35,712 bases of DNA. It comes from Bacteroidia bacterium. GTDB taxonomy: Bacteria > Bacteroidota > Bacteroidia > UBA4408. Shown here piece after piece: positions 12,735 to 27,616 of the stretch. The notes under the pieces were generated by a model that saw only the letters and a program-made list of their open reading frames with translations, had not been told where the DNA came from and did no database searches. Both the position numbers and the translations under genes were made by a program. Each line of letters begins with the position of its first letter. The stretch's first letter is position 1. The stretch lies in NCBI GenBank assembly GCA_040080595.1, contig JBEBIC010000002.1:1-35712 (forward strand), in the 5' to 3' direction.

Positions 12735-13574
12735 TTAAATAAACACGCTCATTTCCTGTTGTAATTTTTGTGCTTCTATGCCTGCTGCTTGGGCATAATC
12801 TGTACCATTGCTTGCGTATATAATACTGCGCGATGAGTTAATGAGCAGGCCGTATTCGTTAGGAATACTACCGTTTTGTATTACCTCTTGTAAGTTGCCA
12901 CCTTGCGCACCCACGCCAGGTATCAACAAAAAATGGTTGGGTATAGTTTGGCGTATTGCTTTTATTAATACACCTTGTGTAGCACCTACTACAAACATGG
13001 TATTATCAGTACTACCCCATGTAGCTACCTTGCGCATAAGTACTTCGCACAATAGTTCTACTTCTATTTTGCCTTGTGCGTTAAATTTTGGCAAGGGTAA
13101 TTTCTGAAAATCTTGCGCACCCACATTTGATGTTAAACCCAGCACTACCGCCCATTTGTTGGGCAATTGCATAAATGGTTTTACAGAATCTTCGCCCATG
13201 TAGGGTGCAACTGTAATGGCATCGCCTGGCATGTTTTGCAAATAGGCTTTGGCGTACATAGTGGCTGTGTTACCAATATCGCCACGCTTAGCGTCTATTA
13301 TTATAAACTGATTGGGGTAGGTTGTTTTTATGTACTGTACTGTTTTTTCGAGGCTTGCAAACCCTTTGCTACCATAGCATTCGTAAAAAGCAGTATTGGG
13401 TTTATAAGCTATGCAGTAAGCTTGGGTAGCGTCTATTATGGCTTTGTTAAATTCAAATATAGGGTCTTCGGTTTGGAGTAAGTGTTGGGGTATTTTGTCC
13501 ATATCTACATCTAAACCAACGCATAACATTGTTTTTTTCGTTTTGATGTTTTGTATAAGTTCTGCTTTGGTCAT
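12735..13574 (-). CDS. pyrF: Orotidine 5'-phosphate decarboxylase (type 2)
   Basis: 'LCVGLDVD', 'IIIDAKRGDIGNT' and 'LIPGVGAQGG' motifs. 279 aa. Confidence 0.9.
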   Translation of the reverse strand: MTKAELIQNIKTKKTMLCVGLDVDMDKIPQHLLQTEDPIFEFNKAIIDATQAYCIAYKPNTAFYECYGSKGFASLEKTVQYIKTTYPNQFIIIDAKRGDIGNTATMYAKAYLQNMPGDAITVAPYMGEDSVKPFMQLPNKWAVVLGLTSNVGAQDFQKLPLPKFNAQGKIEVELLCEVLMRKVATWGSTDNTMFVVGATQGVLIKAIRQTIPNHFLLIPGVGAQGGNLQEVIQNGSIPNEYGLLINSSRSIIYASNGTDYAQAAGIEAQKLQQEMSVFI

Positions 13575-13584
13575 AGGTGTAAAA

Positions 13585-14157
13585 TTACTTTGCTTTAGTG
13601 GTGTTTAAAATTATAGAAACATCTACATTATTAGCCATTACTACACTTGGTAAGCCTACTCCAAAATCGAGTCGGTTTAACTTTAGTGTTCCTGTAAATG
13701 CAGCTTGATTGTTTATTTTACTAAACTTAAACGGAAACAATACCTCTTTGGTTTTACCTTTTATTGTTAATTGACATACCGCAGTATAATTGCCTTCCGA
13801 CTCTTGTTTAATAGACGTGCTTTTAAATAAGATTTGCGGGTGTTTTGCTGCATCAAAAAACTCCTGTTTTTTTAAGTGTTTATCTCGTAGGTCTATACCT
13901 GTTTTTATACTTATTACATTTATTACGCCGTCAAAATGGCTTTTGTTTAACACAGCTGGGTCAAATGTTATTTTGGTATTTACATCAGTAAAATTGCCTG
14001 TTACATTTAACTTAGCATTTTTTATTTTAAACAAAACACTTGATGAGGTTACTTCCCACGATGTTGGGGTTGTGTTTATTGTTTTAAACGAATATACTAG
14101 TGTACTTAACACTAGTATAAAAACAGATAAAAAGAAACGATTGGTTTTTACATTCAT
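13585..14157 (-). CDS. YceI-family protein with N-terminal signal/anchor
   Basis: N-terminal hydrophobic segment 'FFLSVFILVLSTLVYS', then YceI motifs 'SSVLFKIKNAKLNVTGNF' and 'RDKHLKKQEFFDAAKHPQILF'. Confidence 0.8.
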   Translation of the reverse strand: MNVKTNRFFLSVFILVLSTLVYSFKTINTTPTSWEVTSSSVLFKIKNAKLNVTGNFTDVNTKITFDPAVLNKSHFDGVINVISIKTGIDLRDKHLKKQEFFDAAKHPQILFKSTSIKQESEGNYTAVCQLTIKGKTKEVLFPFKFSKINNQAAFTGTLKLNRLDFGVGLPSVVMANNVDVSIILNTTKAK

Positions 14158-14308
14158 TTTATATGGATAGTAATATGGTGTGTTTTTGATGTATTACGTA
14201 ACAAAAATAACAATTTAAACACCTCGCCATCAAAAAATAGCGTTGCAATGGGAGATAAGGATTCAATAGCTCGTTTTATTTTCTATTTTTGGTTAAAATA
14301 ATTAAAAT

Positions 14309-15694
14309 ATGAACTATTACATTGCACTAACAGCACTATTACTCTACTGTACAACTACTTTTGGTAGCAATAGCCACAAAGACTCCCTTGCGCAGTTTAA
14401 TTTAATGATAGCCGAATTACCAAAAGTAAAAGAGGATTCTGCACGATTAAATGAGTTAGTTAAGCTACATTATTATCAGCAAGCTATAGTAGGAGAGCTC
14501 AACAAAAATAATAGCCAAACCTTTAAACTAATGTATGCTAAAGAAGCCATTGGTTTAGCAATTAAACTTAACAAATTAGACACCTTAAAAGCACTGACTG
14601 TTGATGCAGGATATATTTTTGATTTGAACCAAGAGTACGATTCTTCTTATGTATATTATAGCAATTGCCTTAATATACTTGAGGCACAAGGAGCATACGA
14701 CATATCTTCGTCTATAGCTCAAAACATACTGTACAACAACAACGAGTTGCAAAACACATTAAAACAAAATAGAATAATAGAAATAGCTCAACAAAAAAAA
14801 ATAGATAAACTTATATGGCTTGCAATTATTGTTTTGATGCTTTTTTTATTAATGTTGTTTTTTTATATTTTAAAAGCGCGCAAAACCAATACACTACTTA
14901 CCAGCCAAAAAGATGCAATACAAAAAAGCAAATTAGAAATAGATAGTAGTATAGTATATGCAAAAAATGTGCAACAATCTATCATAACTACAGAGCTAAA
15001 ATTTAAGTGGTTTTTTAAAGACAGTTTTGTATTATTTACACCCAAAGACACACTTAGTGGCGATTTTTTGTGGACATTAAAAAAAGATGATTTAACTTAC
15101 TTTGCCGTTGCCGATTGTACAGGGCATGGAGTTCCTGGGGCACTTATATCCATAGTAGGAACACTGTTGTTAGATTCTATTTTAACTGAAGAAACTTATA
15201 AATCTCCTGCAACAATACTAACAGAACTTCATTTAAAATTAGTAGATGCTTTAAATCAAAATGACCCAAACAATAAACATAATCATGACGGTATGGATAT
15301 AGGTGTTTTTGAAGTAAACGAAACGCTAAACACACTAAAATTTGCAGGAGCAAACAGACACTTAACCTATATAAGAAATGGAATTGTTACAGATTACCCT
15401 GGCACAAAACGCCCAATTGGTGGTACACAGGTAACATACGATAAACCCTTTGTTGATGATGAGATAGTTATACAAAAAAACGACATAATGTATAGCTATA
15501 CCGATGGTTACCAAGACCAAATGGGAGGCTTAAAGGATAAAAAAATACAACGAAAGGGTTTATTAGCATTATTACAAAAAGGATTTACAAACCCAATGGT
15601 ACAACAAAAACAACTGTTACACAGCGCATTTACACAACACATGGGTACTAATGAGCAGGTAGATGATGTGTTGGTAGTAGGAATTAAGTTTTAA
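14309..15694 (+). CDS. Membrane-anchored PP2C/SpoIIE-family serine phosphatase with an N-terminal repeat (TPR-like) domain
   Basis: Signal peptide, a roughly 150-aa helical repeat region and a TM helix (LIWLAIIVLMLFLLMLFFYIL). SpoIIE motifs follow: 'SGDFLW...AVADCTGHGVPGA', 'HDGMDIGV', 'YSYTDGYQDQ' and 'DDVLVVGIKF'. Confidence 0.75.
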   Translation: MNYYIALTALLLYCTTTFGSNSHKDSLAQFNLMIAELPKVKEDSARLNELVKLHYYQQAIVGELNKNNSQTFKLMYAKEAIGLAIKLNKLDTLKALTVDAGYIFDLNQEYDSSYVYYSNCLNILEAQGAYDISSSIAQNILYNNNELQNTLKQNRIIEIAQQKKIDKLIWLAIIVLMLFLLMLFFYILKARKTNTLLTSQKDAIQKSKLEIDSSIVYAKNVQQSIITTELKFKWFFKDSFVLFTPKDTLSGDFLWTLKKDDLTYFAVADCTGHGVPGALISIVGTLLLDSILTEETYKSPATILTELHLKLVDALNQNDPNNKHNHDGMDIGVFEVNETLNTLKFAGANRHLTYIRNGIVTDYPGTKRPIGGTQVTYDKPFVDDEIVIQKNDIMYSYTDGYQDQMGGLKDKKIQRKGLLALLQKGFTNPMVQQKQLLHSAFTQHMGTNEQVDDVLVVGIKF

Positions 15695-25237: not shown

Positions 25238-25811
25238 ACCTACACTCATTTTTACATTGTTTTGCATAGCATTAGCAAGTTGCAACACCAACTCTGAAGA
25301 CCTTGCTATACCTAAGCCCAAGGGATATTTGCGCATACAACTTCCTACCAAAACCTATACACACAACACCACAAGTTGCGGCTACTCGTTTGATGTGCCT
25401 ACTTATGCCACCGTAGAAAATAATACGCAAAGCAAAACCAACGAATGCTGGAAAAATGTAGAGTTTAAAACATTTAATGCCACGGTACATTTAAGCTATT
25501 TTAAGCTAGCAAATAATTTGGGCCAATACATTGAAGACGCTCGTAGCCTTGCTTACCGCCACACTGTAAAAGCAGAATACATAAACGAAACATTTTTTAA
25601 AAACGATACCAACAAAACATACGCTGTAGTGTATGATATTGGCGGTAATGCAGCAAGCAACTGCCAGTTTTTTATAACCGATAGTACACGCCATTTTGTG
25701 CGTGGTGCGTTGTATTACAACGTAGCGCCCAACTCCGATTCCCTACAACCCGTTAACGATTTTATAAAACAAGATATTCAACGTTTGATAGAAACGTTTG
25801 AGTGGAGGTAG
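25218..25811 (+). CDS. gldD: Gliding motility lipoprotein GldD
   Basis: Lipobox 'ALASC'. 'IPKPKGYLRIQLP' and 'YDIGGNAASNCQFFITDSTRHFVRGALYYN' match remembered GldD conservation. The gene overlaps gldE by 20 nt. Confidence 0.85.
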   Translation: MKLIATKPTLIFTLFCIALASCNTNSEDLAIPKPKGYLRIQLPTKTYTHNTTSCGYSFDVPTYATVENNTQSKTNECWKNVEFKTFNATVHLSYFKLANNLGQYIEDARSLAYRHTVKAEYINETFFKNDTNKTYAVVYDIGGNAASNCQFFITDSTRHFVRGALYYNVAPNSDSLQPVNDFIKQDIQRLIETFEWR

Positions 25812-25825
25812 AGGTGTAAAAAAAT

Positions 25826-25886
25826 ATAGCCCACGGTTTAAACCGTGGGCTATGAATAGCAGGGCGTGCTAACCGTTTCAACGGTT
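25826..25886. repeat. Two adjacent hairpins sharing an AACCGT core (possible gldD terminator or REP-like element)
   Basis: A perfect 28-bp palindrome ATAGCCCACGGTTT/AAACCGTGGGCTAT sits at 25826-25853. A second hairpin AACCGTT-TC-AACGGTT sits at 25871-25886. No U-tract follows either one. Confidence 0.5.
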
Positions 25887-25921
25887 TGTAAATATGAGTA
25901 TGTTTATTAAAACAACAAAAA

Positions 25922-26239
25922 ATGGAACTAAGCCAAAAACTAAAAACATTTATTGCAGCACAAAAATGGATTTTTGCTAAAACCTATGCTGCCACATGGC
26001 CTCACGAATATATTGTGCAAGAAAAAGTGGACAACGAATTGTATTTAGAATTAGCTACGCACATTGATACATTTGGCTATGAGAGTTATTTTTACAAAAC
26101 GAAACAAATTTATTTTGACTACGATGGATTTACTTACTGGCACATGGAAAACATAATTAATCGTTGTGTTGAGCGAGATACTTTTCATAGGAGAGAAATT
26201 GATGGGAGATTGCCAGAAGACAAACAACACAGCCATTAA
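25922..26239 (+). CDS. Small conserved-looking protein of unknown function (cassette gene A)
   Basis: 105 aa with aromatic-rich motifs 'WIFAKTYAATWPHEYIV' and 'YFDYDGFTYWHM'. A near-consensus -7 box TATGTTTA lies at 25899-25906. The stop codon overlaps the next start (TAATG). Confidence 0.55.
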   Translation: MELSQKLKTFIAAQKWIFAKTYAATWPHEYIVQEKVDNELYLELATHIDTFGYESYFYKTKQIYFDYDGFTYWHMENIINRCVERDTFHRREIDGRLPEDKQHSH

Positions 26240-27027
26240 TGAATAGCTGGGAAATTTTTGACGATTGGGGTTTAGAAAAAAAGAGTGTAAATAATTCCAA
26301 CGTACTAAATTGGAGCGACTTTGATGTGTTGAATAAATCGTTCAACACCATTATTGAAGCGCAATACAAAGAGTTGATACCACTCATTGAACAGTGGGAT
26401 AGCCTAACTATAGATTTAGGTAAAGATGCTACACATAAAAACTGGAGCAATTTTCGTCCTTTAAATTTATCAAGAGAAGAAGATTGGAGTAATTGGTTAG
26501 CTTTTCTTATTGAACATAGCGAGAGCGGAATGTTTTCCTATTATTTACTCAACGAAAAAGAAGGGAAAAACCCCAAAAAAGTACATAGAGAATTATCATG
26601 TGGAAACTATAGAGCAGATATTGTAATAAATTGGGAGGGCAATAATTATACACACATTGAAGTAAAGATTGGCGATGAAAATTTATTAAAAACATTTAAC
26701 ACATGTTTAACGTTAGAAGATAAATTCTCAAACACAAACTGGAAACACTACATTCTATTACTTTCTAATCAGGTAAATTCGTGGAATCAAGTAAGCTTTT
26801 TTCAATCTAAACACATAAGTCTTATAACGTGGGAAGATGTATCAATAGCGCTACGAAAATCTATATTAGGCGAAGAAAGTATAACGTGGAAAGTTTGGGC
26901 GTATTCGTTTATTGGCGTTATTGAACAAAAACTAATTGGTTTTAATGGACACTTGTTAAATGATAAACCAAAAGAAAATTTAGAAGTAAAATTGAACATA
27001 TTAAAACAAGGTTTAAAACATGAATAA
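26239..27027 (+). CDS. Predicted PD-(D/E)XK-fold nuclease-like protein (cassette gene B)
   Basis: 'SREEDWSNWLAFLIEHS' is a helix with acidic residues. It is followed by 'YRADIVINW-EGNNYTHIEVKIGD', giving D127...E141-V-K143, the D...(D/E)XK spacing of restriction-endonuclease-like folds. No other domain was recognised. Confidence 0.45.
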   Translation: MNSWEIFDDWGLEKKSVNNSNVLNWSDFDVLNKSFNTIIEAQYKELIPLIEQWDSLTIDLGKDATHKNWSNFRPLNLSREEDWSNWLAFLIEHSESGMFSYYLLNEKEGKNPKKVHRELSCGNYRADIVINWEGNNYTHIEVKIGDENLLKTFNTCLTLEDKFSNTNWKHYILLLSNQVNSWNQVSFFQSKHISLITWEDVSIALRKSILGEESITWKVWAYSFIGVIEQKLIGFNGHLLNDKPKENLEVKLNILKQGLKHE

Positions 27028-27481
27028 TGAACATATCAATTTTGTAAAAGAAGGGATTTTAAAATATAAAAGTGCAACCAATACTTATTTTTCGTTTAGG
27101 AAATATGTAAAAGAGGAGTTGCAAGAAATTTTAAAGGAAAAACAAAATTGGAGTGGTTTTACACCCAACCTCAAATCAATAAAAAGCACAACGTATGGAG
27201 ATAGTTATCCATTAATTAATGCAAGAGTTGAATGCGAGTATAACGGACAAAAACTGACATTAACCATTGCCATCAATTGGTATCAGGCTGATGCAGACAT
27301 TCCGTTTTATTGTGTATGGTTTGAAAGTGATAGTTTATTAGGCGAAACTTTGAATGAAAACTATTCGCTTGTTCAAAATCAATTACGGTTTTATCCTAAC
27401 TTTGAACAGCTGAATATGAAACAAGATTTTAATTTATTGATAGACGAATATTTAAGTCTTTTTTCAAAACAGAACCACTAA
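27020..27481 (+). CDS. Hypothetical protein (cassette gene C)
   Basis: 153-aa ORF overlapping gene B by 8 nt (ATGAATAA). No recognisable motif. Confidence 0.5.
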   Translation: MNNEHINFVKEGILKYKSATNTYFSFRKYVKEELQEILKEKQNWSGFTPNLKSIKSTTYGDSYPLINARVECEYNGQKLTLTIAINWYQADADIPFYCVWFESDSLLGETLNENYSLVQNQLRFYPNFEQLNMKQDFNLLIDEYLSLFSKQNH

Positions 27482-27558
27482 TCCAACATAACTTAGTTTA
27501 TAAGAGCCTCGTGCTATTTTCAATAACTACAAGTAAAAAATCTACCCTACATTTAACC

Positions 27559-27599
27559 AAAAAAATAGCGCTACTAAAATTTTAGTAGCGCTTTTTTTT
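27559..27599. terminator. Strong bidirectional rho-independent terminator
   Basis: A perfect 26-bp palindrome spans 27567-27592 (AGCGCTACTAAAA/TTTTAGTAGCGCT). It is flanked by A7 and T8, between the cassette and the convergent DUF3127 gene. Confidence 0.75.
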
Positions 27600-27616
27600 G
27601 TAATGTTATGTATTAG

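Follow-up and report, generated by a model that had tools for sequence, protein, structure and literature searches.

A three-gene cassette beside gldD in a Bacteroidia genome as a candidate nuclease-based defence module

Introduction

The window analysed here is a stretch of 35,712 nucleotides from a member of the class Bacteroidia (lineage UBA4408), covering positions 1 to 35,712 of contig JBEBIC010000002.1 in assembly GCA_040080595.1. Between gldD and a gene encoding a DUF3127 protein it carries a compact cassette of three genes, referred to here as A, B and C, which a first reading of the letters alone (the original prediction) had put forward as a candidate novel defence or toxin-type system. 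We propose, with a probability of about one half, that the cassette represents a mobile restriction-like defence module in which B is the effector, C is its obligate partner and A is a DNA-sensing adaptor common to other nuclease systems. The trio is a genuine functional unit and one subtype of a broader B–C system with an exchangeable upstream component.

What is new here is a B family within a known superfamily, together with A and C, neither of which has a sequence or profile match; the predicted fold of A, moreover, has no counterpart in the PDB or BFVD. None of the three proteins gave anything above noise in Pfam, NCBIfam, PHROGs or PADLOC, bearing out the earlier statement that no family could be named for them, and neither single-sequence nor profile searches returned a significant sequence match in the PDB. 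Full-text literature searches with motif strings and topic words retrieved no description of the A, B or C families, and the A–B–C and B–C architectures were not found in PADLOC, Pfam or the searchable literature.

Results and discussion

Gene B and its nuclease family

Homologues of B fall into 57 clusters, all without annotation. An alignment of 46 homologues (35–67% identity) shows no variation at D127, E141 or K143, and further invariant positions lie in FRPLxLxREEDW (residues 72–83), R117-E118, R125-x-D127 and E141-x-K143-x-G145-D146; E80 and E81, on the helix formed by residues 80–93, are also invariant in the 46 sequences. In the AlphaFold2 (AF2) model of B, which has a mean predicted local distance difference test score (pLDDT) of 90.9, the invariant residues are borne by an α-β-β-β-α-β core (Table 1). 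A Foldseek search of the PDB was led by PD-(D/E)xK nucleases (SfsA, Shedu SduA, EndoMS/NucS, MspJI, Cdn1, Card1, Can2, PspGI and PaqCI), several of which stem from defence systems. Both the catalytic motif and the core topology of the PD-(D/E)xK superfamily are present, and sequence and model together indicate that B probably represents a new family within it. The suggestion that B is a nuclease with a D127/E141/K143 triad has therefore held, given the invariance of the triad in the 46 homologues and the core fold of the AF2 model.

The best matches to the B core are SfsA (PDB code 4dap; E = 0.012) and EndoMS/NucS (PDB code 5gke; E = 0.029), both with a probability of 1.0. These matches span only some 110–135 core residues, with no sequence similarity, and the two proteins differ from B in architecture and gene context; moreover, SfsA and EndoMS are housekeeping proteins found almost throughout their lineages, in contrast to the rare and mobile B. 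The second-best fold match in the PDB is the Shedu protein SduA (DUF4263; PDB code 8ps5), which is likewise a PD-(D/E)xK effector with a helical N-terminal region and, as a system, likewise acquires variable N-terminal or upstream additions. However, global superposition of B on SduA is poor (r.m.s.d. of 16 Å, TM score of 0.25), Shedu consists of a single gene whereas B has an obligatory second subunit in C, and B matched neither DUF4263 in Pfam nor the PADLOC SduA model at E ≤ 1, which places it outside Shedu.

The B–C pair

The junctions of the cassette are tight. The three open reading frames (ORFs) have exactly the lengths first described; A and B meet at TAATG, where the stop and start codons overlap by 1 nt, and B and C share an 8 nt overlap, ATGAATAA, both junctions being confirmed at the positions originally given (Table 1). 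In a scan of one genome from each of 185,579 species, B–C was found in 31 loci, in which C usually overlaps B. The hosts comprise Bacteroidales, Flavobacteriaceae, Leptospiraceae and other Spirochaetota, Aminicenantes, Myxococcota/Deltaproteobacteria, Verrucomicrobiae, Gemmatimonadales and one metagenome-assembled genome (MAG) labelled Streptomycetaceae. The pair is also carried by haloarchaeal megaplasmids of Halobaculum limi (L072; NZ_CP120469) and Halorubrum lacusprofundi (L073; pHLAC01, NC_012030), and the overlap in Halorubrum is 8 nt, as in the window; these haloarchaea are cultured, experimentally tractable organisms. No B homologue was detected in 2.9 million IMG/VR contigs or 50,697 phage genomes, which indicates that B is encoded by cells or plasmids and is not a phage gene.

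Only three clusters of C were recovered by word-indexed search. Iterative hidden Markov model searches of the B loci nevertheless placed a C homologue directly 3′ of B in every complete locus. C evolves fast (13–59% identity); F8, G12, A19 and F26 do not vary and W87 hardly does, and none of these residues appears catalytic. Comparison with hhalign gave no relationship of C to A or B, and a weak match to DUF6204 (E = 0.055) was rejected. Two independent fusions unite B and C in a single polypeptide (P0017, 442 aa, and L037), and A and B are fused in L069, where a single ORF of 394 aa is followed by C; such natural fusions imply that the products interact physically. B–C is an obligate conserved unit and A is facultative. 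The original view of the trio as the unit thus stands as regards the linkage of its members, which the A–B and B–C fusions corroborate, but the conserved unit is B–C, with A upstream in only five of about 35 distinct lineages.

An enzyme with a fast-evolving partner in an overlapping two-gene operon, occasionally fused and sometimes located on plasmids and near toxin–antitoxin (TA) genes, recalls type II or fused TA systems. B would then be a nuclease toxin, C its antitoxin or immunity protein and A an extra regulator, and the locus would act by post-segregational killing or, upon inactivation of C, by abortive infection. The close B–C operon with its overlapping stop and start is conserved everywhere, C changes much faster than B and has no catalytic-type conserved residues, as is often the case for immunity proteins, some loci are carried by plasmids or adjoin TA genes, and regulators of the XRE helix-turn-helix (HTH) type (L031 and L070) or the MerR type (L017) occupy the upstream position in some B–C loci. 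Degraded copies of B would also fit: it is split in L036 and L041 (Table 1), which may reflect either decaying copies or assembly frameshifts. Against this, a leading effector followed by a larger partner without a recognizable DNA-binding domain is atypical of type II gene order and partner size, and no TA family in PADLOC or Pfam was matched. The two independent B–C fusions are hard to reconcile with a labile antitoxin that is degraded separately; fused toxin–antitoxin defence proteins do exist, which softens this argument. The broad coupling of A to restriction nucleases such as McrBC, described below, also fits restriction better, and we consider an addiction function unlikely.

The exchangeable upstream position

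A–B–C loci comprise that of the window, shared with the near-identical contigs L007 and L008, those of two Bacteroidales MAGs (L012 and L013), that of a Spirochaetota MAG (L041) and the fusion locus L069, and the A-linked B proteins group in one branch of a neighbour-joining tree. In two unrelated lineages the place held by A in the window is taken by short genes (113–117 aa) for single-stranded DNA-binding proteins (SSBs), one in L002 and two in tandem, abutting B, in the Leptospiraceae MAG L019. The window has an ssb gene of its own 2 kb upstream, which belongs to the conserved ssb–gldE–gldD arrangement.

These SSB genes raise the alternative that B–C is a DNA-repair or recombination accessory of mobile elements, that is, a structure-specific nuclease that acts with SSB on single-stranded or branched intermediates, like NucS/EndoMS, RmuC or exonuclease-plus-partner pairs, and has no part in immunity. 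The presence of EndoMS/NucS among the top fold matches of B, the proximity of A to RmuC in Patescibacteria and the housekeeping neighbours at many B–C loci point in the same direction. The extreme patchiness of the family, with 31 loci in 185,579 species, and its degraded copies would be unexpected under steady selection, however, and B is missing from precisely those phage genomes and IMG/VR contigs in which recombination modules abound. No consistent recombinase or annealase partner accompanies it, and the genes to which A is coupled include those for McrBC and HNH-like ones. We judge a repair function to be quite improbable.

Gene A as a companion of nucleases

The A proteins carry the motifs W-x-FAKTY..(W)PHEY, YW.M and INR. 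More than 425 clusters at 64–94% identity are spread across Bacteroidota, Patescibacteria and other groups, and an exhaustive profile search gave 1,497 representatives of 50%-identity clusters; A is an independent and undescribed family, much larger than B–C. The AF2 model of A (pLDDT of 93.4) has the order α-β-α-β4-α and found no structural match in the PDB, where the best hit had E = 0.58 and a probability of 0.12, or in BFVD. An assignment as a roadblock/LAMTOR-like protein was rejected, the fold matches being faint (probability of 0.12), as was a weak match to T3RM_EcoP15I_C (E = 0.09). Several members (P0182, P0206, P0238, P0248 and P0255) have N-terminal extensions of 130–390 aa without a Pfam match, which add to the partner domains of A that still lack characterization; a reading of P0248 by eye as GIY-YIG was dropped, having no support in Pfam, and the N-terminus of P0192, HNH-like by eye, has no Pfam match.

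In all nine independent contexts examined, A is either fused to a nuclease or nuclease-like gene or lies no more than about 150 nt from one; it accompanies nucleases in general. Both in Lutibacter and in another lineage that recurs across several samples it precedes McrB–McrC by 25–143 nt, and in Patescibacteria it adjoins RmuC and small ORFs in which HNH-like Cys/His motifs can be read by eye. Elsewhere it stands 0–2 nt before an ORF of 355–363 aa with an E..RPD..IEAKFW motif of PD-(D/E)xK type, again read by eye, one copy following an integrase gene and the other a Fic/Bro-N gene (Table 1). The idea that the 355-aa partner is a B+C-like fusion was discarded: its C-terminal 100 residues are colinear with the C profile, but the alignment falls short of significance (E = 0.068), and there is no similarity to B. 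Fusions join A to PDDEXK_4 (E = 2 × 10⁻¹⁰), an RNase_H-like 3′–5′ exonuclease, HD_4 and DUF6508 and, more weakly, to methyltransferase (P0327) and ParB_N (P0249) domains, and in L012 A is fused to an N-terminal domain in which a PD..ExK motif was read by eye.

Three unrelated hypothetical genes, with A independent of B–C and with no function at the level of a system, would be another account of the cassette, and the great majority of the more than 425 A clusters do occur without B–C, as B–C occurs without A in about 30 lineages. Mere juxtaposition is nevertheless very improbable, since A and B are translationally coupled through TAATG, the order A–B–C recurs in Bacteroidales and Spirochaetota, no more than about 150 nt separate A from a nuclease gene in any of the nine contexts, and the single A–B polypeptide of L069 contradicts it.

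Divergent A-like genes (25–56% identity) also occur on 26 IMG/VR viral contigs, where the neighbours within two genes belong mostly to PAPS (3′-phosphoadenosine-5′-phosphosulfate) reductase-like, DNA methyltransferase and ParB-like nuclease families. Gene 156 of Microbacterium phage Hendrix, annotated as a methyltransferase, has an A-like domain as its N-terminus and stands between glucosyltransferase, N-acyltransferase and PAPS reductase genes, in surroundings that look like a DNA hypermodification cluster. In phages Leaf and Dewdrop an A-like match likewise falls inside a gene annotated as a methyltransferase. Such phage modification clusters, with their ParB-like nuclease, DNA methyltransferase and PAPS-reductase genes (IbrA/IbrB-like), contain divergent A-like domains that are embedded in them or fused to methyltransferases; in contrast, the window holds no modification enzymes and cellular A is a tightly conserved stand-alone protein of about 100 aa that is paired with nucleases. 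SRA, EVE and YTH domains are modified-base readers of type IV restriction and are distributed as portable modules. The spread of A among cellular nucleases and phage modification enzymes resembles that of the DNA or modified-base recognition modules of type IV systems.

Setting of the cassette beside gldD

The cassette is flanked by gldD (Pfam GldD_lipo, E = 7 × 10⁻⁶⁹) and, on the opposite strand, by the DUF3127 gene (E = 1 × 10⁻²⁴), both as originally identified. The synteny ssb–gldE–gldD is kept in 29 related metagenomic loci (SSB 61–71% identical), and none of the 19 that extend at least 2 kb downstream of gldD has A, B, C or DUF3127 there; the cassette is shared only with L007 and L008. 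Comparison of the gldD-to-DUF3127 interval with close relatives had been suggested as a check; in the relatives found here the cassette is missing downstream of gldD from all 19 informative loci, in agreement with the idea of an insertion point. These observations support the cassette being accessory, horizontally acquired and no part of the gld locus.

A GldD search of metagenome contigs for cassette-free close relatives gave no match, and an SSB search returned only the relatives at 61–71% identity, in which the adjacency of gldD and a DUF3127 gene is not conserved; the exact insertion junction can therefore not be reconstructed. No convincing direct repeats that might be target-site duplications flank the cassette, no tRNA gene lies near it and no Rfam family scored above threshold. 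An imperfect 30 nt direct repeat with 77% identity does bracket it, from the 3′ end of gldD to that of gene C, and is probably a chance occurrence in AT-rich DNA.

The lower G+C content of the cassette had been noted from a spot check. The direction of that claim was right (0.315 against a mean of 0.363 for the window, with a standard deviation of 0.026 among segments of equal size), but the difference is small, 3.8% of such segments being as low, and the lowest stretch of the window (0.30–0.31) lies elsewhere (Table 1).

Strong secondary structure had also been described on either side of the cassette. The 28-bp and 26-bp palindromes are real, but the second upstream hairpin amounts to a mere 5-bp stem, and the palindromes, which had been taken to insulate the unit, are ordinary terminators instead. 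The downstream palindrome (z scores of −7.0 and −6.7 on the two strands; none of 200 shuffles as stable) lies between the convergent genes C (+) and DUF3127 (−) and has a terminator score on both strands, which together identify it as an ordinary bidirectional intrinsic terminator. The upstream palindrome with its neighbouring sequence reaches −31.6 kcal/mol (z scores of −4.8 on the plus strand and −6.5 on the minus strand; again none of 200 shuffles as stable). An A7 run precedes it on the 5′ side, and a hairpin followed by a U-run therefore arises on the minus strand only, resembling the terminator of a leftward gene. The DUF3127 gene may once have ended at this hairpin, and insertion of the cassette would then have separated the two; no cassette-free close relative bearing on this idea was found.

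Table 1
Coordinates of the cassette, of features around it and of related genes in other loci. Positions are those of the window unless a locus or residues are named.
Feature	Location	Strand	Remarks
Gene A	25922–26239	+	105 aa ORF; proposed adaptor/sensor
Gene B	26239–27027	+	262 aa ORF; proposed effector nuclease
Gene C	27020–27481	+	153 aa ORF; partner of B
B/C overlap	27020–27027		8 nt
Core elements of B (residues)	H80–93, E114–121, E124–131, E136–142, H151–162, E167–174		AF2 model; H, helix; E, strand
Upstream palindrome	25826–25853		Perfect, 28 bp, 13-bp stem; just 3′ of gldD; left cassette boundary
Putative second upstream hairpin	~25872–25885		5-bp stem
Downstream terminator	27560–27599		26-bp perfect palindrome (27567–27592) with A7 and T8 flanks; right cassette boundary
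Imperfect direct repeat	25763–25792 and 27415–27444		3′ ends of gldD and gene C
Lowest G+C stretch	~13400–15000		G+C below that of the cassette
355–363-aa partner of A	L159: 5318–6409; L162: 5314–6381		Copies 57% identical
Phage Hendrix gene 156	L161 (NC_047977): 94990–95985		N-terminal A-like domain
SSB gene upstream of B	L002: 293–634		
Tandem SSB genes upstream of B	L019: 2714–3067 and 3119–3469		Leptospiraceae MAG
Split B	L036: 4841–5510		Flavobacteriaceae MAG; no C found
Split B	L041: 9992–10716		Spirochaetota MAG

Defence neighbourhoods and a possible mechanism

Defence genes accompany some of the B–C loci. Type I restriction–modification (R-M) genes are found near B–C in L001, together with an AAA_15 ATPase, in L018 and in one further locus, and L002 has PLD-helicase, SocA_Panacea and HEPN/MNT genes nearby. 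The Halobaculum pair adjoins a DUF262 gene and that of Halorubrum lies near type I-B CRISPR–Cas genes, an insertion sequence element, parA and an integrase gene. The defence-island signal around B–C is modest, suggestive and not strong. The expectation that the cassette would sit in defence neighbourhoods was realized in about a quarter of the loci, but most of the others have housekeeping neighbours.

In the mechanism that we envisage, the locus would form a self-contained unit built around a nuclease, gained by horizontal transfer and serving restriction or defence. B would act as its effector, a Mg-dependent PD-(D/E)xK endonuclease, and C would bind B as an obligate subunit that either regulates it or confers specificity. 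A, an optional adaptor domain which is attached to many unrelated nucleases in other genomes, would share a transcript with B and be coupled to it. What A might recognize on incoming DNA is most plausibly a base modification of the kind found in phages or some other state that marks DNA as non-self; it would then license or recruit the B–C nuclease to cut that DNA. Overall, the cassette may be a modification-dependent (type IV-like) restriction enzyme assembled from new parts. The anti-phage role, DNA sensing by A and the function of C are inferred only.

The known type IV enzymes (McrBC, the MspJI family and GmrSD/DUF262) are among the systems most similar to the cassette. Like the cassette, they combine a cleavage module of PD-(D/E)xK type with a separable small recognition module, swap modules among nuclease types and have a patchy phyletic distribution; there are also direct points of contact, as A occurs directly upstream of bona fide McrB–McrC, MspJI is among the fold matches of B and an archaeal B–C pair lies beside DUF262. 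Unlike these systems, the cassette has no AAA+/GTPase motor and has an extra obligate subunit in C, and A has no known reader fold (SRA, EVE, YTH or ADAM). A dependence of the cassette on DNA modification would be pure inference. A bolder proposal, which we hold to be doubtful, is that A is a structurally novel domain that senses one particular state of DNA, such as a hypermodified base in phages or a modification of the phosphorothioate or PAPS-reductase type. In bacteria it would have been combined with no fewer than five kinds of nuclease (B–C, McrBC, HNH-like, other PD-(D/E)xK and exonuclease) and with an HD-domain protein, and phages would employ it to guide the modification enzymes that they encode; A–B–C would then be the founding member of new three-component type IV-like restriction systems, whose obligate subunit C likewise lacks an assigned fold.

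Several observations weigh against a restriction-like defence module. None of the 5,027 models of PADLOC-DB v2 was matched by A, B or C at E ≤ 1. R-M, CRISPR, TA or type IV genes lie near only about a quarter of the B–C loci and the rest have housekeeping surroundings; the 122 proteins neighbouring B–C span 124 distinct Pfam families, many with housekeeping roles, so that a classical defence-island score would be low. The fold matches of B are weak (best E = 0.012, TM scores of 0.25–0.29) and restricted to the core. A has no detectable resemblance to known DNA-binding or modification-reader folds in the PDB or BFVD, and a protein that reads variable phage features would not usually keep an identity of about 70% from one phylum to another, as A does. 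The role of C as a regulatory or specificity subunit is guesswork, and the SSB genes that replace A upstream of B–C in two lineages could hint at DNA repair or recombination. From the original idea of a defence-type module, the nuclease B, the accessory character of the locus and its distance from known defence families remain, while the compositional shift proved to be small and the island signal modest. We retain the restriction-like module as our preferred interpretation; the probability left over by it and by the addiction, repair and juxtaposition alternatives falls to explanations that are not listed here.

Conclusions

As candidate defence systems based on nucleases already abound, another one is less surprising, and the A family is the most interesting element of the cassette. 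The natural A–B and B–C fusions make the hypothesis of interaction directly testable. If the interpretation given here is correct, B–C would constitute a new nuclease-based immune module present in Bacteria and on haloarchaeal plasmids, and a function would be at hand for the large, conserved and unannotated A family, which comprises about 1,500 clusters at 50% identity without a Pfam or PHROG model. As a portable domain, A would help in the annotation of defence islands and, should it prove to be a reader of modified DNA, may find use as a tool.

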